Part shown: positions 5,635-17,846 of the stretch, piece after piece
Position numbering within the stretch: the stretch's first letter is position 1
Layout: each line of letters starts with the position of its first letter
Assembly (NCBI GenBank): GCA_016202425.1
Contig: JACQOS010000101.1
Location: 1-33,635, forward strand
Length of the DNA stretch: 33,635 nt
Direction: 5' to 3'
DNA from: Chloroflexota bacterium
GTDB lineage: Bacteria; Chloroflexota; Dehalococcoidia; Lucifugimonadales; JACQOS01
Notes under the pieces: generated by a model
Seen by the model: only the letters and a program-made list of their open reading frames with translations
Databases searched by the model: none
What the model was told of the DNA's origin: nothing
Made by a program: the position numbers and the translations under genes

Positions 5635-7899
5635 ATGGTCACCGCCAAGAGTGTCGCTCTGCCCCGTGTGGATGCCCGAGAGAAGGTTACCGGTAGGGCT
5701 CTCTACACCGAGGACCTCCCCTCTCCCTACGGCGTGGCCTACTGCGCCATCCTTCACAGCCCCTACTCCCACGCTCGCATCCGCTCCATTCACGCCGAAA
5801 AAGCGGAGCGCCTACCGGGAGTCCTGGCCGTCCTGACCCGGGAGCATCTGGGGGCCACGAACCCCTACATCCCCTCGGGCGATCTTCCCCTCAACCAGCC
5901 CTTCATCGCCATGGACAAGGTCCGGCACGACGGCGAACCCGTCGCAGCGGTGGCCGCCGAGAGCCTGGCGGTGGCGCAGCACGCCCTGAGCCTCATCGAA
6001 GTGGACTACGAGGAGCTCCCGGCGGTGTTCGACGTCCGGGATGCCGTGGCCCCGAACTCGCCCCGTTTGCACGACGCCTTCACCTCCAACGTCTTCTGGG
6101 AGTACCGGTGGAACTGGGGCGACGCGGAGAAAGGCTTCCGTGAGGCGGACCGCGTCTTCGAGGACACCTACTACTTCCCCAGCGTCTTCCAGTACCCCAT
6201 GGAAAACGTTGGCGCGTGCTTCGCCGAGTTCCGGGGCGACGGCGTGGAGCTGGTGGCACCCATCCAGCATCCCTTCCCCCACCAGGATGAGATCGGCGAG
6301 ATGTTCGGCCTCCCCCCTGAGCGGGTGCGCATACGCATGCCCTACGTGGGTGGAGGCTTCGGAGCCAAGGAGCTCAAGACCAACCACCTCATCGCCCTCT
6401 GGCTCGCCCACAAGACCGGCCGCCCCATCATGACCGTCCCCTCCGCCTGGGAGAGCATCCGCACCGACGGTCGCCACCCGATGGTGTACAAGGTGAAAAC
6501 GGGGGTGAAGGCCGACGGGACCCTTTGGGCCCAGGACATCGAGCTCCTGGTGGACTCGGGCTCTTACGCCCGCGCCCTCAGCCAGATCGTAGCGCGTCTG
6601 GCTGTGGCCGGGGCGTGGGGCCCGTACCGCGTCCCCCACATGCGCATGGTGGGCTACGCCGTCCTCACCAACCGCGTCCCTCCTGGCGCTTTCCGCGCCC
6701 TTGCCAAGGCCCAGGTGACCTGGGGCTACGAGTGCAACCTGGACTCCATTGCCCGGGCCATGGGCGTGGACCCCATGGAGTTCCGTATCAAGAACTTCAT
6801 GCGCCGGGGCGACCCCATCGCGGAAGGGGCATCCCCCCTGGACACCGACTACGATGTCCTGCTGCGCAAGGCAGCCCAGGCCATCGGCTGGGATGGGCGC
6901 TCCAACCGCGTCGGCCCGGAGGCTGCAAAGCGCCCAACGGGCAAGGGACCCTTCCGCGGCCGTGGCCTCAGCACCACGTTCCGCCACGGCTTCTCCGAAG
7001 GCTCCAACAACTTCGTGACCGCCATCCTGGACAGGCACGGCAAAGTGAGGCTTCTTCACTCGGCCGCAGAGATCGGCATGGGGGTCTACGCTGTCATGAC
7101 GCGACTGGCGGCCCAGGCCATGGGCATCCCGGAGAACGACATCGAAGTGGGCCATGCGGATACCGAGCACCCCCACTCGGACGGCATTGGGAGCTCCCGG
7201 GACACCGTGTGCATGGGGAATGCCGTGCAGGATGCCTGCGAGGACCTGAAACGGGAGCTTCTGAGCGCCGCCGCCATGTGCAAGGGCGGGAGGCCCGAGG
7301 AGTGGCGGCTGGCCCAGGGCCGGCTGTGGCACGGCGAGCACGACTTCTCCCCGAGCGAGATCGTGTTGGGCACCCACCCCCGCTCAGGAGTGATCATGGG
7401 GAAAGGCTCCTATATCACGCCTCGCCGCAACAACCCTTTCCTGGGCATCGTCCCCCACTGGGAGGCGAGCGCGGGAGCGGCAGAGGTGGAGGTGGACCCC
7501 GAGACCGGGGAGGTGCGCCTCCTCAAGTTATCCACCGTGGCCGACGTGGGCAAAGCCATTCTGCCCGGCCCTTGCAAGGGGCAACTGGACGGTGGTGCCG
7601 TCATGGGCTTGGGGGATACCCTCTACGAAGAGGTGGTGTACCAGGAGGGTAGGCTCATCAACGGAGACCCCTTCCAGTACCGGCTGCCGGTGATGGCCGA
7701 TGTGCCGGAGGAGTTCCACTCCGTGATGGTGGAGAATGGGGACGGCCCGGGCCCTCTGGGGTCCAAGGGCATGGGCCAGAGCGGCGTGAGCACCGTGGCG
7801 CCCGCCATCGGCAACGCCGTCTACGACGCCATCGGCGTGCGCATCAAGGACCTCCCCATCACGCCGGAGAAGGTCCTGCGGGCCCTGGGCAAGCTCTGA
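5635..7899 (+). CDS. Xanthine dehydrogenase / aldehyde oxidase / CoxL-family molybdopterin-binding large subunit
   Basis: 754 aa. N-terminal PRVDAREKVTGRALYTEDL is the hallmark start of this family. GGGFG-type motif (VGGGFGAKE). ATG start with a GGAGGAGG SD. No adjacent [2Fe-2S] or FAD subunit genes are visible. Confidence 0.9.
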   Translation: MVTAKSVALPRVDAREKVTGRALYTEDLPSPYGVAYCAILHSPYSHARIRSIHAEKAERLPGVLAVLTREHLGATNPYIPSGDLPLNQPFIAMDKVRHDGEPVAAVAAESLAVAQHALSLIEVDYEELPAVFDVRDAVAPNSPRLHDAFTSNVFWEYRWNWGDAEKGFREADRVFEDTYYFPSVFQYPMENVGACFAEFRGDGVELVAPIQHPFPHQDEIGEMFGLPPERVRIRMPYVGGGFGAKELKTNHLIALWLAHKTGRPIMTVPSAWESIRTDGRHPMVYKVKTGVKADGTLWAQDIELLVDSGSYARALSQIVARLAVAGAWGPYRVPHMRMVGYAVLTNRVPPGAFRALAKAQVTWGYECNLDSIARAMGVDPMEFRIKNFMRRGDPIAEGASPLDTDYDVLLRKAAQAIGWDGRSNRVGPEAAKRPTGKGPFRGRGLSTTFRHGFSEGSNNFVTAILDRHGKVRLLHSAAEIGMGVYAVMTRLAAQAMGIPENDIEVGHADTEHPHSDGIGSSRDTVCMGNAVQDACEDLKRELLSAAAMCKGGRPEEWRLAQGRLWHGEHDFSPSEIVLGTHPRSGVIMGKGSYITPRRNNPFLGIVPHWEASAGAAEVEVDPETGEVRLLKLSTVADVGKAILPGPCKGQLDGGAVMGLGDTLYEEVVYQEGRLINGDPFQYRLPVMADVPEEFHSVMVENGDGPGPLGSKGMGQSGVSTVAPAIGNAVYDAIGVRIKDLPITPEKVLRALGKL

Positions 7900-7960: not shown

Positions 7961-8458
7961 CTACGCCCCCGTGCCCAGGCTGGCCGCACTCACAAACCTC
8001 CCCAGATTGGCATCATAGTACCGAGCGTTATAGAAGTACAGTCCCGTCCCGTCCAGCCTTTGCCCCGTGAACTTCCGGTCCGTCCCCAGCGTACCGTTGC
8101 TGGTCCTGGCCTCCCCGAAGGGCTTGTACCGCAGGCTGCTCACCTGTGCCCCGGTGCCGTCCGTGCTCACCAGGGAGCCGCCCAGGTGGTCCTGGTGCAC
8201 GTACTCCAGGGCCGTGCCCTTGCGCAAGGCCACCAGGCGCTCTCCCAGGTAGTAATACGTGGTGACCACTCCGGTGGTCACGTTCTTCTCGTAGTAGCGG
8301 TTGGCGTAGTGGACCGTCTGGCCACCCTCCAGCTTCTTTACTCGGTTCCCGTCGCCATCATACACGAACCTGGCACCGCCGCTCACCGCCGTCACGCGGT
8401 TGGGCACGTCCCAGGCGATGGCCTGGGAGCCCCGGGTGGTCATGTTGCCGTTGGCGTC
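7961..8458 (-). pseudogene. Orphan Rhs core fragment (YD repeats to ...NARYYDANLGRFVS), lacking the DPxGL motif and any toxin domain
   Basis: DANGN.., YDGDGNRVKK and YFYNARYYD..GRFVS are Rhs/YD core signatures. The reading frame opens right after a stop at 8474-8476. Homology to the 9475-9845 copy ends exactly after RFVS, and 8 unrelated codons and a stop follow. Confidence 0.85.
7989..8356 (-). repeat. Direct repeat A (Rhs core segment), paired with 9475-9845
   Basis: By-eye alignment at an offset of about 1486 bp. It includes a long perfect run starting CCCCGTGAACTTCCGGTCCGTCCCCAGCGTACCG (8063 / 9549). Confidence 0.85.
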
Positions 8459-8516
8459 GCAAATTTTCAGTAGTTAGCATCCTTCAAAGGCCAGCATTGA
8501 CTCTTAACAGGCGCTT

Positions 8517-8837
8517 CTAGAGTTTAAGAAAACGCTTGAGAAGCCGATATGCCCGGTAGGCGAGCGCACCGCCAACCAAACTAACAACTGCGGCAACCCC
8601 ACCGAGCACAATTTTCCCCATGACCGTAGCTGACGAAGCGGCGATCCCAGTCAAGGCTGAGACAAATGCAGCAAAAGGGTAATATGCTCGCACAAACTTC
8701 TCCATCGGCCGCCTCTTCGCAGCTAGCCAAACAGTTGGCATCACAACTGTCAGTACAAAGGTCAGTCCGATAGCAAGAGCTACGCGAATGTCTTCTCTGG
8801 AGATCCCGGTTGCCATAATGCCTATGAGTAGGTCCAC
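8517..8837 (-). CDS. Small polytopic membrane protein, putative cognate immunity protein 1
   Basis: 106 aa with about 3 hydrophobic helices and a basic C-terminus (AYRAYRLLKRFLKL). It lies 48 nt downstream of the Rhs-CT stop. It is a homolog of ORF 9891..10223, sharing PT(V/I), KFVR.Y.P and Y.L(L/V)KR(F/L)LK. Lower G+C than the flanks. Confidence 0.7.
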   Translation of the reverse strand: MDLLIGIMATGISREDIRVALAIGLTFVLTVVMPTVWLAAKRRPMEKFVRAYYPFAAFVSALTGIAASSATVMGKIVLGGVAAVVSLVGGALAYRAYRLLKRFLKL

Positions 8838-8885
8838 TATGCTCTTCTCTGTAGAGAGATGTCGCCAGACGTTTTCAAAATCGGG

Positions 8886-9767
8886 TTAACTAAAAAGGCC
8901 TTCCCATTGCGGAATAACTGATTCACTGTATATCGCAATTGTTACCGACCATCCTCCAACAAAAACGGAAACCTGTGTCGTAGCAGTTATTGGAAGGGCT
9001 ACAAACCAACCTATAGGTCCCGCAGCTATAGCTGGTGGGTAGGCGAAGATCAACACGCCGGCGACCGCGGTACCAGCGAGGGCTGGCACCAACGCCTCAA
9101 GGGTCTCAAGGGGTGTCAGCACTAGGTTAAACTCTGGCTGACGGTCCGATGTTGAGGGCCGTGCATCGTCTAGGAGTTGCGAAACAGCAGGCTGAATACC
9201 CCCTTGGGCCGCGATGTCTGCTGCCACGAACTGCTGGTGCTCAAATTCAATCTGCGCCCCGAGGCCGTTGATGATGAGCAGGGTTTGCGGGGGTGGGGCT
9301 TCACCTTGCTGCGACAGGTCATACGCCTCCTGCTCCGCTTTCCGCACCTTCGCCTCGTCTTCCGGGCGGTGGTGTAACCCTGTGGGGTCAGTGTACTTGA
9401 GCGGGTTGTTCACGACATAGCTGTACCGACTCAGGCCCTGGGGATCTCTCAGGCGTGGAACAACGCTATCCGGGCTCACAAACCTGCCGATCTGGGGGTC
9501 GTAGTATCTGGCGTTATAGAAATACAGTCCCGTCCCATCCAGCCGCTGCCCCGTGAACTTCCGGTCCGTCCCCAGCGTACCGTTGCTGGTCCTGGCCTCC
9601 CCGAAGGGCTTGTACCGCAGGCTGGCCACCGTGGCCCCAGCGCCGTCCGTGCTCACCAGGGAGCCGCCCAGGTGGTCCTGGTAGACGTACTCCAGGGCTG
9701 TGCCCTTGCGCAAGGCCACCAGGCGCTCTCCCAGGTAGTAGTACGTGGTGACCACTCCGGTGGTCAC
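8886..9767 (-). CDS. Orphan Rhs C-terminal module: core end + DPxGL + about 160-aa C-terminal toxin-like domain with a hydrophobic tip
   Basis: RYYDPQIGRFVSPDS and NNPLKYTDPTGL form the Rhs core terminus. GTG at 9767 is the first start codon, but Rhs homology in the same frame continues up to a stop at 9846-9848 (DADGNLVKKLEGG...). No N-terminal Rhs shell is present. Confidence 0.85.
   Translation of the reverse strand: MTTGVVTTYYYLGERLVALRKGTALEYVYQDHLGGSLVSTDGAGATVASLRYKPFGEARTSNGTLGTDRKFTGQRLDGTGLYFYNARYYDPQIGRFVSPDSVVPRLRDPQGLSRYSYVVNNPLKYTDPTGLHHRPEDEAKVRKAEQEAYDLSQQGEAPPPQTLLIINGLGAQIEFEHQQFVAADIAAQGGIQPAVSQLLDDARPSTSDRQPEFNLVLTPLETLEALVPALAGTAVAGVLIFAYPPAIAAGPIGWFVALPITATTQVSVFVGGWSVTIAIYSESVIPQWEGLFS
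9085..9302 (-). repeat. Direct repeat C (N-terminal part of the toxin CT), paired with 10481-10698
   Basis: 218 bp with 5 mismatches by my manual count. Confidence 0.9.
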
Positions 9768-9845
9768 GTTCCTCTCGTAGTAGCGGTTGGCGTAGTGGAC
9801 CGTCTGGCCGCCCTCCAGCTTCTTTACCAGGTTACCATCGGCGTC
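9475..9845 (-). repeat. Direct repeat B (Rhs core segment), paired with 7989-8356
   Basis: See repeat A. Confidence 0.85.
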
Positions 9846-9890
9846 TTAGGACAACTGGCGCTGAGGCTTACAGGCTCTACGACAAAGCTT

Positions 9891-10223
9891 TCACTGCTTG
9901 AGCAAACGTTTGACAAGACGATAGATCGGGTAGGAGCCATAGCCCGCTGCTAAGGCCACAGGGCCGATTATTCCCATGACGACCAGCTTTTCTACTAGCT
10001 CAGAGGCTGTAACCACGACGCCTGCCTCTGCCGAAAGGAAAAGAGCCCATGGAACATACCGCCGGACAAACTTGTCCGGATTACCTTTGCGAATAGCGAT
10101 AACGATTGTTGGAAGGATCACTGTCAAAAAGAGGACAACCGTGGCAGTTAGCCCCATCATGATGTCGTCAGGCGTTAACTGTGTCAGTCGGTTTAAGCCT
10201 GTCATGACTCCTCCGACGAGCAT
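9891..10223 (-). CDS. Small polytopic membrane protein, putative cognate immunity protein 2
   Basis: 110 aa with about 3 hydrophobic helices. ATG start. It lies 49 nt downstream of the CT fragment stop. Divergent homolog of 8517..8837. Confidence 0.7.
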   Translation of the reverse strand: MLVGGVMTGLNRLTQLTPDDIMMGLTATVVLFLTVILPTIVIAIRKGNPDKFVRRYVPWALFLSAEAGVVVTASELVEKLVVMGIIGPVALAAGYGSYPIYRLVKRLLKQ

Positions 10224-10272
10224 TCATGAAAGTGCACGCTCCTGGCGGCTACGACGCCCGGACCCTGCGACT

Positions 10273-10710
10273 CTACCGAGGCCGTTTGAATAGATCCATC
10301 CATTGCGGGATCACCGACTCACGTAGCACGAGCCCAGTACTAATCACTCCGCCAAAGAAGCTAACTGCTTGGGTAGTTGCCGTTACTGGCAACACGAAGA
10401 ACCATCCCACTGGCCCCATACTTATGACTGCAACATCGGCGGGAAGTAGGGCTACGACAACAACAGTACCCATGGCAAATGGCACCAACGCCTCAAGGGT
10501 CTCAAGGGGTGTCAGCACTAGGTTAAACTCTGGCTGACGGTCCGATGTGGAGGGCCGTGCATCGTCTAGGAGTTGCGAAACAGCAGGCTGAATACCCCCT
10601 TGGGCCGCGATGCCTGCTGCCACGAACTGCTGGTGCTCAAATTCAATCTGCGCCCCCAGGCCGCTGATGATCAGCAGGGTTTGCGGGGGTGGGGCTTCGC
10701 CTCTCTGCAC
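10273..10710 (-). CDS. Orphan Rhs-CT toxin fragment (no Rhs core), variant 2
   Basis: EAPPPQTLLIISGLGAQIEFEHQQFVAAGIAAQGGIQPAVSQLLDDARPSTSDRQPEFNLVLTPLETLEALVP is almost identical to the CT of 8886..9767. A divergent hydrophobic tip then follows. Homology stops at about 10698, 38 nt from the proS stop. Confidence 0.75.
   Translation of the reverse strand: MQRGEAPPPQTLLIISGLGAQIEFEHQQFVAAGIAAQGGIQPAVSQLLDDARPSTSDRQPEFNLVLTPLETLEALVPFAMGTVVVVALLPADVAVISMGPVGWFFVLPVTATTQAVSFFGGVISTGLVLRESVIPQWMDLFKRPR
10481..10698 (-). repeat. Direct repeat D, paired with 9085-9302
   Basis: See repeat C. Confidence 0.9.
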
Positions 10711-10735
10711 TCCCCTTCACAGAATTCTCAGACCC

Positions 10736-12436
<1,701 letters not shown>

Positions 12437-12613: not shown

Positions 12614-13342
12614 TCAGCCTCCGGGGTCCTTGGCCACGGAGTAGTCGTACCCTCTCCAACCCTTCACGGCGTCGTGGCGGCGGATGTCCAGCACCTTCCC
12701 GCCGTTCGCCAGGAGGAACGCCGTCACCTCCCCGCGCCGTATCCCGAACACCTCCATGCGCGGTCCGTTGGCCACGCGGCAATACCAGCCGAGAACCGCG
12801 CTAGCAAGGCCGATGAACGGCATCAGCCACGGGAGGGGCTCGCTGGGCAACTGGAAGACCGCCACGCCTCCTGGCCCGAGGACGCGCAGGAACTCCCTGA
12901 TGTAGCCCAGGGCATAGCGAGGCTCCATGTGCTGAAGGGTGATGTTGGAGTACACGAAGTCGAAGGCGCTGTCCGGGAAGAGCCCCAGGTCCTCCCTGTC
13001 GTTGACAACGTACCTGCACTTGCCCCCGTGGCGATTGTACTGCTCGGCCAGCCTCACCATGGAAGGTGCGATATCCACGCCGACCACCTCATCGAAATAG
13101 CTGGCCAGCGCCTGGGTCACCCTCCCTACCCCGCAGCCAAAGTCCAGGGCGACTCCCCGGCGTGGGCGCATCGGGAGGCGGTCCACACGCTCCATGACAC
13201 CGCTGATCTCCTGCTGCCCCGTGGCGAAGAACTCCGCCGACTCCCAACGCCTCCCCTTCTTGCCCGGAGCCCGCAAGATGGCCCAGAGGGGGTCAAGCTT
13301 CCCAAAGGCATCCCAGGATCGGCGCAGCTCTTTCAGGTCCAT
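12614..13342 (-). CDS. Class I SAM-dependent methyltransferase
   Basis: Motif I VALDFGCGVGRVT, followed by VVGVDIAPSMV. G+C looks native. Confidence 0.8.
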   Translation of the reverse strand: MDLKELRRSWDAFGKLDPLWAILRAPGKKGRRWESAEFFATGQQEISGVMERVDRLPMRPRRGVALDFGCGVGRVTQALASYFDEVVGVDIAPSMVRLAEQYNRHGGKCRYVVNDREDLGLFPDSAFDFVYSNITLQHMEPRYALGYIREFLRVLGPGGVAVFQLPSEPLPWLMPFIGLASAVLGWYCRVANGPRMEVFGIRRGEVTAFLLANGGKVLDIRRHDAVKGWRGYDYSVAKDPGG

Positions 13343-13403
13343 GGATGAGAGGCTGTTTACTTCGAAAGCGCGTAGCTACCCCTTCTCTTACCTGCCCATT
13401 CCT

Positions 13404-14318
13404 CTAGCACAAGGGATATCGCTGTCTTCTCTCTTTTAGGACAAGGGCGCCCGATCGAGTCCAGGTCAACTCTCTACCTATGAGTAACTCAAACATCCTG
13501 GCATGATGGGTATTCGTCATGGCCACTGCCGCCACCTGAAACGCGTGCGCTTGAGCCAGTTGCCGAATTTCGGGTGCATCGTCGTATGTCATCAAAAAGT
13601 CGCCAACAAGTGACTGAGCAATCCTGAATAGAGCCACGTGATCAAGGTCATTATGCGTGTAAAGACGAGTTCCAGCTCTCTTGCCACCAGCCGTGTAGGG
13701 GGGGTCAATGAAATACACTACGTCCGGCCGTGCAGCATACTGTCTCAAGACGTCCATCCCATCCCCTTCGATGAACCGAATGCGATGACGCAACTTATGG
13801 ATGTTAAGGATGCGTCTCTTCAAAGTCTCTGGGTACCAACGGGACCTTACCCCTTTGCCGTTTTCACCGTATCTCAGTAAGCTGGCTCCGGGTGCCAAGA
13901 TTCCACCCCTATTGACCCTGTTCCGAACGATCGTCTGAAAGGCCTTCTCCCGAAGGCTGGCAACTTGCCTCGCTAGCTCTTCTTGAACGGATTCCAGGGA
14001 AGGCTCAAACCCCGTGATCCTGTTGACTAGCCATTCGCAATCATCGCTCAAAACGGTTCTCCAGACGGCAGCCACTTGGTCGTCGAGTTCTACCATAGTG
14101 AGGGTGTCTACGAAATTCTCAAATACTGCGGTCAGGCCCACAATGGCACCCCCAGCGAACGGCTCAAGAAGTTCCTTAGGCCTCACGCGCTGGGATGCCA
14201 ACCATTGGCGGGCATATGGAACGAGCCAAGTCTTCCCTCCTGGATAGCGGAAGGGGCTCCTCTGTGGAACAGAGGCAACGTTGACTACATCCTTTCCGAT
14301 GAGAAGTAATTGGACCAT
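13404..14318 (-). CDS. DNA adenine (N6) methyltransferase, Dam-like D12 class
   Basis: FRYPGGKTWL, motif I EPFAGGA and motif IV IDPPY in alpha-class order. ATG at 14318 lies 4 nt after the endonuclease stop. The TTG at 14333 is the ORF-track start. G+C is visibly lower than in neighbouring genes. Confidence 0.88.
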   Translation of the reverse strand: MVQLLLIGKDVVNVASVPQRSPFRYPGGKTWLVPYARQWLASQRVRPKELLEPFAGGAIVGLTAVFENFVDTLTMVELDDQVAAVWRTVLSDDCEWLVNRITGFEPSLESVQEELARQVASLREKAFQTIVRNRVNRGGILAPGASLLRYGENGKGVRSRWYPETLKRRILNIHKLRHRIRFIEGDGMDVLRQYAARPDVVYFIDPPYTAGGKRAGTRLYTHNDLDHVALFRIAQSLVGDFLMTYDDAPEIRQLAQAHAFQVAAVAMTNTHHARMFELLIGRELTWTRSGALVLKERRQRYPLC

Positions 14319-14322
14319 AGAT

Positions 14323-15198
14323 TCACGGCTCAAACGCTAAGGGTTGGACGTCGGGTGCACCATGATTCTCGCCCTGCTTATCGAACTGCTCCTGAAGCTT
14401 CGCCAGGAAATCAGCCTCATCCCCTGGCTCCGGCTTAGTGATCTGGTCGAGAGCTGTTCCAAACTTAGTGTACACTTTTCGCTGTCTTTGAAGGAGGTAT
14501 CTTCGTGTCCTAGGGGAATACGCGGGCGTGTAAGTCAGCCACACCATCTCTGCCTGTTCTTGTGGTACCTCTTCAAGGAGTGGCAGGGTGTCGTACAAGT
14601 TCTCGTCCAAAGCAATGGCGATCTTTCTGTTCCAGGTGTGAAGAATGCCTCCCTTGTACAGTAGTTGGGGAGCTAGGCGCTTGCGAGAAGAGGAGAGGTA
14701 ATCAGGGCGTGGGTAACCAGGGCTACCTCTCCAGTCCATGCCGGCCCGTTTAACGGGATCATCCATGTAGTGCTGGAATGGCCGCCGGATGTTACCGGAG
14801 ATATAGAGAGCCTGGACCTCTAACGCCCCGTAGTCCAAGATCCGGCCGCGCTGGTCGTAGGAGACCAGCACGATGTCGACACTACCAGCAGCCTTGCCGT
14901 GCCGATCTTTCAATTCAACTTCGAACAAAGAGGTCCAATTCACATCGGGAGGGAAGAAGAAAGAGGCGGCGTCTTCTACGACAATCCAATCTTGCCGGAG
15001 CCGGATGGGGCAGATGATCACGACCCTTCCTTCATGAAACATGCTACATACCCCAAGAGGGTCCTCAGCATTATCCTTTGTGCAGTTAGCGGAGACGTTG
15101 TTGAAGGGACAAAGTCTACGTTTGCGATAGCGTTGCGCCTCTGGAGAGTGGTTGTTTACAGGGAATCCAAAGACCTCACCGAGCGGATGATTTCGCAT
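14323..15198 (-). CDS. Type II restriction endonuclease, NotI-like family
   Basis: The 3' third of ORF 14323..16251. The N-terminus GEVFGFPV...CPF..x..C.K....GVC.....IICPIR mirrors the NotI Cys4 metal-binding motif as I recall it. ALEVQALYISGN corresponds to NotI VLEIQTMDFHGS. ATG at 15198 is preceded by GGGGAAGAG. An alternative ATG lies at 15216. Confidence 0.75.
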   Translation of the reverse strand: MRNHPLGEVFGFPVNNHSPEAQRYRKRRLCPFNNVSANCTKDNAEDPLGVCSMFHEGRVVIICPIRLRQDWIVVEDAASFFFPPDVNWTSLFEVELKDRHGKAAGSVDIVLVSYDQRGRILDYGALEVQALYISGNIRRPFQHYMDDPVKRAGMDWRGSPGYPRPDYLSSSRKRLAPQLLYKGGILHTWNRKIAIALDENLYDTLPLLEEVPQEQAEMVWLTYTPAYSPRTRRYLLQRQRKVYTKFGTALDQITKPEPGDEADFLAKLQEQFDKQGENHGAPDVQPLAFEP

Positions 15199-15278
15199 GT
15201 CTCTTCCCCGGCGCATGGCTAAGGGCCCAAAATGTACTCCCGTATGGGCTACCGACGCTCCCCGCTCCACCCATCGCC

Positions 15279-16397
15279 CTACACCTTCTCCACCTCTTCC
15301 ATCAGGGCGGCGAGCATCTCCGCCTCCGGCACGACGCGCACCTTCTGCCCCTTGCGGAAGATAACGGCCCGTCCGGCCCCGGCGGCGATACCCACATCCG
15401 CGTCCTTGGCCTCGCCCGGGCCGTTCACCTCGCAGCCCATGACCGCGACCTTCACGTTCCTGTCCACGCCCTTGAGCAACGCGTCCACCGTGTTGGCAAG
15501 CTTGATCACGTCCACGTCCGCCCGGCCGCAGGAGGGACAGGCCACCAGGGTCGCGCCCTTCTGGCGCAGGTTCAGCGACTTGAGGATCTCGTAGCCGGCG
15601 AACACCTCCTCCCGAGGGTCGTCGGAGAGGGAGACCCGGAGGGTGTCTCCTATCCCCTCGTAGAGGAGCACGCCGATGCCGATAGCGCTGCGGATGCTTC
15701 CGGCCCTGGCGGTGCCTGCCTCGGTGATGCCCAGATGGAAGGGGTAAGGGACCAGCTCCGCCAGGCGGCGATATGCCTCCACGGTAGTGGGAACGTCGAA
15801 GGCCTTCAGAGAGACCTTGATGAGGTCGAAGTCCAGCGCCTCCAGGATGCCGATCTCCCACAGGGCCGTATCCACCATGTGGTCCACCAGCGAGTACTCC
15901 CCCTCCGACGCACCACCCGCTTTGGGCAGCAGGTTCACCTGGTCGCTCAGGCGGTGCAGGGCCCGCGTCTTGCCGATGGCGCCCACGGGAGGGAGGCTGC
16001 CGAAGTTCACGCCGATGCGAATGGGGACCTGCCGCTCCCCAGCCGCCCTGACCACCTGCTTCACCCGCTCCGCGTCGCGGATGTTGCCGGGGTTCAGGCG
16101 GAGGCAGTCCACGCCGCCGGCGATGGCCTCCAGGGCGAGCTGGTAGTGGAAGTGGATGTCCGCCACCAGGGGAATCCCGGTCTGGCGCTTGATCTCCTTC
16201 AGTGCCCTGGCAGCCTCCAGGTCCGGGACGGCGCACCGGACGATCTCGCACCCAACCTCCTCCAGGCCCTTGATCTGCGCTACCGTGGCCTTCACGTCCC
16301 GGGTATCGGTCTTGGTCATGGACTGGACGGTGATAGGTGCGTCGCCCCCCACCTTCACGGGGCCCACCCAGACCGGTTTTGTAGGCCGACGCTTCAT
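15279..16397 (-). CDS. ispG: 4-hydroxy-3-methylbut-2-en-1-yl diphosphate synthase (flavodoxin) IspG/GcpE
   Basis: KPVWVGPVKVGGDAPITVQSMT... and the C-terminal CPSCGR + GCEVNGPGE 4Fe-4S motifs. ATG at 16397 with a GGAAGGGA SD. Confidence 0.93.
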   Translation of the reverse strand: MKRRPTKPVWVGPVKVGGDAPITVQSMTKTDTRDVKATVAQIKGLEEVGCEIVRCAVPDLEAARALKEIKRQTGIPLVADIHFHYQLALEAIAGGVDCLRLNPGNIRDAERVKQVVRAAGERQVPIRIGVNFGSLPPVGAIGKTRALHRLSDQVNLLPKAGGASEGEYSLVDHMVDTALWEIGILEALDFDLIKVSLKAFDVPTTVEAYRRLAELVPYPFHLGITEAGTARAGSIRSAIGIGVLLYEGIGDTLRVSLSDDPREEVFAGYEILKSLNLRQKGATLVACPSCGRADVDVIKLANTVDALLKGVDRNVKVAVMGCEVNGPGEAKDADVGIAAGAGRAVIFRKGQKVRVVPEAEMLAALMEEVEKV

Positions 16398-16422
16398 GAA
16401 AGCCGTCCCTTCCCGCTGCCTT

Positions 16423-17799
16423 CTACGCAGACGGCGTCTGACAAAACCGGTGAACAAGCCTCTGCGCGCCCTCAGTTGAAGCCCAGGCCGCGTCATCCGG
16501 GCCAACCTGGTTGGGACAGATGGCACAGACATTCGATTGAATAAGTTTCTGATGTAACACCTTGGCGTCGCGCAAGAGCGCATCCGGCTCGTTTGTGGCC
16601 TTGCCCAATGCCTGCGTCCACAATTCGAATCGCCTTCTCAGCTTGCCAGGATCAGTAGTACCTTCAGAAAACGCGTCAACAAACCGGTCCAGGACCATTA
16701 CATCGACAAGACGACGGCGTACTGCCATAGCGAAAAGCTTCCTATCCGCGTCCGTTAGTGAGCTCCAAGTCTTCTCAAGCAGCGCTCCGGCCTGAGCAAA
16801 CCCTACCATTTCTAGCTCAAAGAGGAGGTCATTCCGCGGCTTCCCCCACCGGCCAGGAGGGTTACCCGTGTCTCCACGCCTAAATAGACGAAATGCTTCC
16901 TGCCCAAAGACACGGTCGACCCAAGTGCAGGCGATTGCGAACTCCTGTCGGAATCTCTCCGCACTAACAGGATCAAGGTTCCGGTTAGTTTCCATCTCAT
17001 CATTTAGAAAGGACCGAAATGGCCTACGATATCTATCCATCCTGTGAAGCAACGCAAAAACCCGCAACACCAGCTCCCTGTGGCGCATTCTTTTGTCAGG
17101 TTCGTTCTTTTTCCAGAGGGTCAAGAAACGGTAGTCTTCACCCAACGAGGCAATCAACTTGTTGTATGGTCCCCTATACAAGCAATTCCTGAGTTCCTGG
17201 CTGTTCAAACTCATGGAACCTTGGTTCAGCCGCGCGAAGAGGGCGTATTTCATGTCCGAGTGCACACTTTTGGGAAGTCGGATCACCGAAAGTTCCGTAT
17301 CCCATAACTTGGAGCGATCCTCTATGCTTAGCGCAACGACTCCTTTGCCATTAAGCTCAGGCAAAACTTCCAATGCGCGCAGGGTGAGCGGGGTTAACAC
17401 GGTGTACTTTGTCTGCGTTTTTCCAGCAGCAGCTGTCGGACCCTGCAAAACCGGCTGCAGAAAACGAAACACGGTCTCTAGACGTTGATGTCCATCAATC
17501 ACCGCCCAGAGTCCATCCTGCTCTTCAGCTATGAAAATCGCCGGTGTAGGAAGGCGCAGTAACAGTGACTCTATGTAACGGCTTGCGCGGGTTGGGTCCC
17601 ACACATAGTGGCGCTGGAATTCTGGCTCTAAGATCAATTCTTGGCCCAAGTAGCGTTGCCACACTTCTCTGACCTTTACTTTGCTTTCCTCCCACGCGAC
17701 GCTCCGAAATTCCTCGGGGACATGCAAAGGAACGTATTCTTCCTCCTCCCGCTCCCGCTCCGCCCAACTTTCATCCTCCCCCTTAGCGCCCTTGACCAT
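16423..17799 (-). CDS. Stand-alone DUF262 (ParB/Srx-like, GmrSD N-terminal type) protein with an unassigned C-terminal region ending in CxxC...HxxC
   Basis: PEFQRHYVWD...ESLLLRLPTPAIF...VIDGHQRLET is the DUF262 signature. I did not recognise a DUF1524/HNH-type His-Me motif. The C-terminus is CAICPNQ..x..VHRFC. ATG at 17799 has a GGAGGG SD; the TTG at 17826 is the ORF-track start. Visibly lower G+C. Confidence 0.8.
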   Translation of the reverse strand: MVKGAKGEDESWAEREREEEEYVPLHVPEEFRSVAWEESKVKVREVWQRYLGQELILEPEFQRHYVWDPTRASRYIESLLLRLPTPAIFIAEEQDGLWAVIDGHQRLETVFRFLQPVLQGPTAAAGKTQTKYTVLTPLTLRALEVLPELNGKGVVALSIEDRSKLWDTELSVIRLPKSVHSDMKYALFARLNQGSMSLNSQELRNCLYRGPYNKLIASLGEDYRFLTLWKKNEPDKRMRHRELVLRVFALLHRMDRYRRPFRSFLNDEMETNRNLDPVSAERFRQEFAIACTWVDRVFGQEAFRLFRRGDTGNPPGRWGKPRNDLLFELEMVGFAQAGALLEKTWSSLTDADRKLFAMAVRRRLVDVMVLDRFVDAFSEGTTDPGKLRRRFELWTQALGKATNEPDALLRDAKVLHQKLIQSNVCAICPNQVGPDDAAWASTEGAQRLVHRFCQTPSA

Positions 17800-17846
17800 G
17801 TCTACCCTCCAAAGCCAGCTTCTCAACTAACAATTTTCAGAGCGCC

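Follow-up and report, generated by a model that had tools for sequence, protein, structure and literature searches.

Orphan Rhs toxin–immunity modules behind proS in a Chloroflexota bacterium: a probable stranded array slice with intact immunity genes

Why should pieces of Rhs toxin genes, with no main rhs gene beside them, lie directly behind proS in a Chloroflexota bacterium? The window analyzed here is an entire 33,635-bp contig with a GC content of ~68%, and the Rhs array in question is a 2.75-kb slice of its minus strand, in which two pairs of a C-terminal toxin tip (CT) and an immunity-like gene are followed by a core stub. The anatomy was read from a six-frame translation of the minus strand between 7850 and 10800. 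The segment is, in our judgment, probably an inner piece of an orphan rhs-CT/rhsI array that was left stranded, with the intact immunity genes as its likeliest functional part; an orphan-only Rhs array of this kind is not unusual, and this one is a real but ordinary relic.

Three tandem partial Rhs units follow the proS stop codon on the minus strand, and every element that the initial annotation had placed there was found (Table 1). Read in the direction of transcription, the layout is (truncated) CT-a and imm-a, then partial core, CT-b and imm-b, then partial core (truncated), and the array occupies the whole intergenic space from proS to the gene for the large subunit of a molybdopterin hydroxylase (Mo-hydroxylase). 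Homology of CT-a to unit 2 begins at 10708, 27 nt past the proS stop codon (TAG, 10736–10738), and the open reading frame (ORF) of CT-a begins after an in-frame TGA in a frame that differs from that of proS. The likely start of imm-a is an ATG at 10205, with GGAGGA 3 nt before it. Unit 2 reads from ...DADGNLVKK through YYDPQIGRFVSPDSVVPRLRDPQGL-(14)-DPTGL into the 162-aa tip CT-b and matched the complete NCBIfam model TIGR03696 (Rhs_assc_core; positions 1–76 of 76, E 2e-22). Unit 3 starts with ...CDANGNMTTRG, and its resemblance to Rhs stops at nt 7979, with GRFVS as the last Rhs-like residues and the first DPxGL not reached; the same model was matched over positions 1–52 of 76 only (E 3e-11). 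The DPxGL...DPxGL autoprotease motif is whole, together with the Rhs core, in unit 2, and unit 1 has no TIGR03696 match. These E-values, like the repeat identities given below, are far beyond chance.

The partial cores of units 2 and 3 are homologous to the 3' end of the rhs core and have neither an N-terminus nor an initiation context. No N-terminal trafficking or secretion domain was found in any unit with Pfam and NCBIfam, and the YD-repeat shell (~700–1000+ aa) is missing, with only the last 128–170 residues before the tip present. No further Rhs sequence was recovered from the window when three full-length Rhs proteins of Chloroflexota served as tblastn queries, nor does the window contain an Rhs-sized ORF. 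The initial annotation had described orphan tip/immunity modules that lack shell and secretion domain and have no full-length rhs on the contig, and these searches bear it out. Without shell or secretion domain, the array is unable to deliver a toxin alone. As had also been noted, each of the three units starts right after an in-frame stop, and only 27–45 nt separate it from the preceding gene, be it proS or an immunity gene. The reservation that the fragments might be the 3' end of a longer, overlooked gene could be discarded on account of this spacing, and fusion of CT-a to proS was rejected because of the different frames.

The repeats within the array carry a record of recombination. The core repeats at 7979–8278 and 9465–9764 are 90% identical in nucleotide sequence, and the unit-3 and unit-2 cores are also 90% identical at the protein level over 128 aa (~384 nt). 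CT-a and CT-b are paralogues with 74% protein identity, which is unevenly distributed at the nucleotide level: the N-terminal halves of the tips (9084–9312 and 10480–10708) are 97% identical over the first ~210–229 nt, after which identity falls sharply to ~50%, and this fall coincides exactly with the start of the hydrophobic domain that is conserved in the family. Because imm-a and imm-b are likewise only 36% identical, the toxin domain has changed in step with its partner, and the linker has been homogenized. Such joint divergence is the signature of polymorphic toxin–immunity pairs, and the recombination boundary within the tip shows sub-domain swapping of toxin-plus-immunity units inside an array. 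Composition divides the array in a similar manner. The G+C content at third codon positions (GC3) is 0.84–0.87 for the cores (0.84 for unit 2), as against 0.87–0.89 for host genes and 0.51–0.57 for the tips and immunity genes (0.55 for CT-b); the same contrast of core and tip was reported by Jackson 2009 (PMC2935791).

Table 1. Positions of the Rhs array elements and of other genes in the window
Feature	Position	Strand	Description
CT-a, 5'-truncated Rhs C-terminal toxin tip	10276–10710	-	145 aa; without core and without DPxGL; entire hydrophobic domain kept
imm-a, predicted membrane protein, candidate cognate immunity for CT-a	9894–10223	-	~104–110 aa, intact ORF, ~3 hydrophobic segments
Unit 2	8889–9845	-	319 codons stop to stop, right after in-frame TAA
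Unit-2 partial Rhs core	9375–9845	-	last 157 aa of shell + core, up to DPQGL-(14)-DPTGL
CT-b, complete toxin tip	8889–9374	-	non-conserved linker half + conserved ~80-aa hydrophobic C-terminal domain
imm-b, predicted membrane protein, candidate cognate immunity for CT-b	8520–8837	-	106 aa, ~3 hydrophobic segments
Unit 3 core stub	7964–8473	-	170 codons of Rhs shell + core; without DPxGL and without tip
proS	10739–12436	-	566 aa from real start; NF006625 match, E 5e-220
Molybdopterin hydroxylase large subunit	5635–7899	+	Pfam Ald_Xan_dh_C, MoCoBD_1, MoCoBD_2; convergent with array
SAM (S-adenosylmethionine) methyltransferase	12617–13342		between ispG and proS
D12/Dam-like methyltransferase	13407–14333		between ispG and proS
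NotI-like restriction enzyme	~14326–15250		between ispG and proS
GmrSD/NsnA-like gene	16426–17826		between rseP and ispG

For the tip family, 1.84 billion representative proteins were searched exhaustively with phmmer. Eight matches resulted, of which one was the window's own protein, four were real relatives (P0002, P0242, P0243 and P0244) and three (P0241, P0245 and P0246) were set aside, from their sequences, as low-complexity or repeat artefacts. The real relatives are all short, and those with an N-terminus have Rhs core before the tip. What is conserved across the family alignment (A2) is the hydrophobic C-terminal domain of ~80 aa, in which P, G and W positions are invariant. In all four instances, two in the window and one each in loci L001 (a Chloroflexi metagenome-assembled genome, MAG) and L084, the tip is kept together with a candidate immunity gene immediately downstream. 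In both of these loci the tip is followed by a ~100-aa homologue of imm-a/imm-b and then by a truncated Rhs core fragment (L001 1394–1699, L084 1879–2136), so that the tip, immunity and core-stub order of the window recurs there.

The immunity family has four members, all predicted transmembrane (TM) proteins of ~105 aa, and a profile search for further homologues recovered only the input sequences. Two scans of Joint Genome Institute (JGI) metagenomes gave no match to the tip family, the CT-a and CT-b tips had no match in Pfam, NCBIfam or PADLOC, and comparison of CT-b with the PDB gave only marginal matches (E >= 0.098) to two unrelated enzymes. The sole match of an immunity protein, to a phosphotransferase system (PTS) subunit (E 0.007, far under the cut-off), was dismissed as a chance likeness between membrane proteins. 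The tip/immunity family is very rare, uncharacterized and new. By Kyte–Doolittle hydropathy, hydrophobic segments cover residues 68–134 of CT-a and residues ~246–296 of unit 2 for CT-b, about the length of two membrane spans per tip, and on this hydropathy the tips are probably membrane-active. An AlphaFold2 model of CT-b was all-helical and unreliable (pLDDT 45, pTM 0.26).

A parallel for such membrane action is offered by Tse5 (RhsP1) and Tsi5 of Pseudomonas aeruginosa. In the Rhs effector Tse5 it is the C-terminal tip that makes pores in membranes, and two TM regions are predicted in its immunity protein Tsi5 (PMC9637101). The window resembles this pair in having an Rhs tip with predicted TM segments next to a small candidate immunity protein that is predicted to be integral to the membrane, and membrane depolarization is what hydropathy leads us to propose for CT-b as well. 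Tse5 is, however, a full-length type VI secretion system (T6SS) effector, whereas CT-b belongs to a unit without a shell, and Pfam, NCBIfam and PDB searches, which did not include a direct comparison with the Tse5 tip, detected no sequence relationship between the two. What the window adds is a new toxin/immunity family from an under-studied phylum, with a predicted site of action in the membrane.

The partial cores could be mapped onto full-length Chloroflexota Rhs proteins, where they align with the ~165 residues that immediately precede the tip. The unit-2 core is 60–63% identical to residues 1456–1617 of 1796 in the full-length Rhs protein of locus L008 and to residues 1992–2154 of 2343 in that of L011. 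Full-length relatives carry Sec-type signal peptides, SpvB, NHL or CBM domains, DUF6443 and RHS repeats, which matches the TcdB/TcaC-type export and architecture listed for Chloroflexi by Zhang et al. (PMC3482391). One further full-length Chloroflexi rhs gene (L005 2514–10661) spans 2,716 codons and is interrupted in frame by a stop at codon 2417, immediately ahead of the core; it may be a pseudogene or reflect a sequencing error.

Orphan rhs-CT/rhsI modules have been described in enterobacteria (Jackson 2009, as C-terminal displacement; Poole 2011; Koskiniemi 2014), and the window shares much with them: a partial core of variable length, DPxGL followed by a distinct tip of lower GC content, a small immunity ORF behind every tip, the lack of both a start signal and an N-terminus, and tandem units with core repeats between them. 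It differs in that the contig has no full-length rhs upstream, where proS is found instead, and in that the first unit has no core and the last no tip. The host is also a member of the Chloroflexota, and the parent Rhs is of the Sec/SpvB type and not T6SS-linked. A second comparison is with polyimmunity loci (Zhang 2012) and the immunity arrays of V. cholerae (PMC5361080), in which immunity genes are similarly kept without a deliverable cognate toxin and would guard against neighbours. Uninterrupted immunity genes are a defining feature of polyimmunity loci according to Zhang et al. (PMC3482391), whereas those of the window are interleaved with toxin-tip fragments.

The initial annotation had implied that it is remarkable for the array to stand alone, without a full-length rhs gene. 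This view is drawn from enterobacterial loci and was not supported. Related loci were fetched with unit 2 as query, and a locus was counted as standing alone if at least 5 kb of upstream flank was free of Rhs sequence. A full-length gene leads 21 of the fetched loci, and 11 distinct loci (L002/4, L003/7, L006, L009, L014, L020, L023, L054, L069, L074 and L078) start with a fragment of 93–714 codons and have no main gene, which is to say 11 of 32. The best 120 protein matches are all 177–553 aa long. The closest core relative, P0003 (72% identical; L085 2548–4102, and also L086), is a single orphan module seen in two independent samples: a 409-aa fragment made up of partial core and a hydrophobic tip is followed by a 99-aa TM ORF, probably its immunity gene, and the P0003 ORF overlaps an ABC-ATPase gene at the stop of the latter. 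A further stand-alone, shell-less fragment (P0019, 442 aa; L003 10001–11329) comes from a near-complete Dehalococcoidia MAG in which the other matches are also fragments; here Laminin_G_3 is joined directly to the terminal Rhs core, with ~21 residues after DPTG.

Even among enterobacteria the arrangement has a counterpart in E. coli K-12, where rhsE, a 2,049-bp pseudogene, is followed by ydcD. As in the window, a 5'-truncated rhs with a small ORF downstream sits among unrelated genes with no full-length rhs adjacent; the difference is that rhsE keeps ~680 codons of core in a single unit, compared with the two and a half units, much shorter and of another toxin family, seen here. Rhs "pseudogenes and relics" and N-terminally truncated pseudogenes have been catalogued in E. 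coli, Ralstonia and Xanthomonas (PMC2935791; bioRxiv 10.1101/2025.05.08.652813). Orphan-only Rhs remnants are thus common outside the Enterobacteriaceae, and for this reason isolation from a main gene is by itself no sign of a new system; the window serves here as a calibration.

The flanks place the array at a break in synteny. Proteins most similar to the proS product of the window come from Chloroflexota/Dehalococcoidia MAGs and are 75–78% identical to it. These relatives share the block rpsB, pyrH, uppS, cdsA, dxr, rseP, ispG and proS, of which proS is the final gene, and synteny with them stops at the proS stop codon. Downstream of it they have a polysaccharide deacetylase gene or others, but never Rhs and never a Mo-hydroxylase. 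The loss of synteny at this point, together with the different genes found there, places the array at a rearrangement or insertion/deletion junction. No insertion sequence (IS) element or tRNA gene adjoins the array, and no tRNA gene occurs anywhere in the window. A comparison of empty and full sites among the relatives was attempted and proved uninformative as to insertion or deletion, given that the closest proS sequences are only 75–78% identical and the downstream genes differ.

Taken together, we propose that the array originated from the Sec-secreted Rhs toxin type of the Chloroflexota, with SpvB, beta-propeller and YD shell, and that deletion or rearrangement would have pared both of its ends back to the flanking genes' stop codons. 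In the scan for promoters and terminators, the minus strand showed no terminator-like site from proS to the array, and imm-a and imm-b could for that reason be transcribed by read-through from proS. The two proteins would then protect the cell from relatives that deploy toxins of the CT-a or CT-b type. In such an encounter the ~80-aa hydrophobic domain of the tip may insert into the target membrane and depolarize it, and the cognate immunity protein, with its three predicted TM segments, would neutralize the toxin within the membrane, as Tsi5 does with Tse5. The anatomy, the homology, the lack of a main gene on the contig and the conserved pairing of tip and immunity gene are observed here; expression, protection, membrane action and the history of deletion are inferred.

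Several observations weigh against this account of a stranded slice with useful immunity genes. The scan, which was limited to sigma-70-type sites, found no such promoter upstream of unit 2 or imm-b, and its two weak promoter-like sites both fall inside imm-a and are no excess over the chance expectation of 1.0 +/- 1.1. The membrane mechanism is drawn from hydropathy, the structural model being of low confidence. The core copies of units 2 and 3 have diverged under purifying selection (dN/dS, the ratio of nonsynonymous to synonymous substitution rates, 0.2), and CT-b and unit 2 are complete and free of frameshifts, both of which fit an array that is still recombining and not one that is only decaying. 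Finally, deletion of a longer array and insertion of a foreign fragment look the same at this site, there being no close relative with an empty or full one.

Ongoing recombination is the essence of the alternative that survives best, namely that the array is a silent reservoir. The initial annotation had put forward this reservoir and the scar of a lost main gene as two possibilities, and either may hold. According to the reservoir proposal, the ~384-bp core would also be present in a full-length rhs at another place in the genome, and homologous recombination through it would swap CT-b and imm-b onto a deliverable protein, as in the activation of Salmonella orphans, where the mechanism is established (PMC3967940). 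Unit 2 is suited to such a role, being intact all the way from its partial core, past DPxGL, to its stop codon; the close identity of the core copies and their low dN/dS ratio agree with it, and the nearly identical stretch of CT-a and CT-b, with its abrupt boundary, indicates recent recombination or gene conversion in the array. A partner for the exchange did not emerge, however. The best non-self core match in 5.8 billion protein clusters, among which are the proteins of this contig, was the 72% already mentioned, the best matches are themselves fragments, and a scan of the contigs of GTDB representative genomes gave no locus above 66% identity, so that the genome of the window is not one of these representatives. 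Recombination in Salmonella, moreover, used an adjacent main gene, and a distant partner would lead to deletion, inversion or a large duplication, while CT-a, without any core, could not be captured by core recombination at all. We therefore consider a reservoir unlikely, although it is the alternative to be taken most seriously.

A more speculative suggestion, which we rate as rather doubtful, is that stand-alone orphan modules abutting the 3' end of a housekeeping gene in the same orientation (proS here, the ABC-ATPase gene in L085/L086) are a selected arrangement in Chloroflexota and not debris. Read-through would keep the membrane immunity genes, and maybe an internally initiated toxin, switched on, and the modules would be acquired defence or addiction modules. 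Were this true, the conserved ~80-aa hydrophobic tip, with its 3-TM partner, would stand for a new family of Rhs toxins that act on membranes.

The two remaining explanations are both less likely than a reservoir. In the first, CT-b would be made from an internal start, such as the in-frame GTG at 9767 with GAGAGG before it, and be expressed in the cell together with imm-b as an addiction or growth-control pair resembling a toxin–antitoxin (TA) module. The toxin–immunity pairs are intact, and internal promoters and type II TA behavior were described for Salmonella orphan Rhs by Starsta et al. 2020 (PMC7043789); that precedent, however, comes from just one enterobacterial system, the toxin of which is unrelated, and the sigma-70-type scan offered no promoter-like site upstream of unit 2, all of which makes the proposal improbable. 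Least probable of all is an assembly artefact, in which a mis-join or collapse across the Rhs repeats would have created the proS–array–Mo-hydroxylase adjacency or the number of units, for although the contig is metagenomic, Rhs cores are conserved between co-occurring strains and the exact runs of 69 and 78 nt common to the internal repeats exceed the k-mer sizes of some assemblers, the outer junctions (10708–10735 and 7979) lie in unique sequence outside the repeats, the two flanks are alike in composition (GC3 0.87 and 0.89), and the same order of tip, immunity gene and core fragment was found in the independent assemblies L001 and L084.

Elsewhere in the window, the far end of the contig (26328–27548 and 29271–31402) holds a serine recombinase gene together with two DDE transposase genes of the IS type, with no link seen between them and the Rhs remnants ~15 kb away. 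On the other side of proS from the array, defence-type genes (12617–17826) have been inserted within the otherwise conserved housekeeping block, at a place where the relatives have just a 173-aa hypothetical gene.

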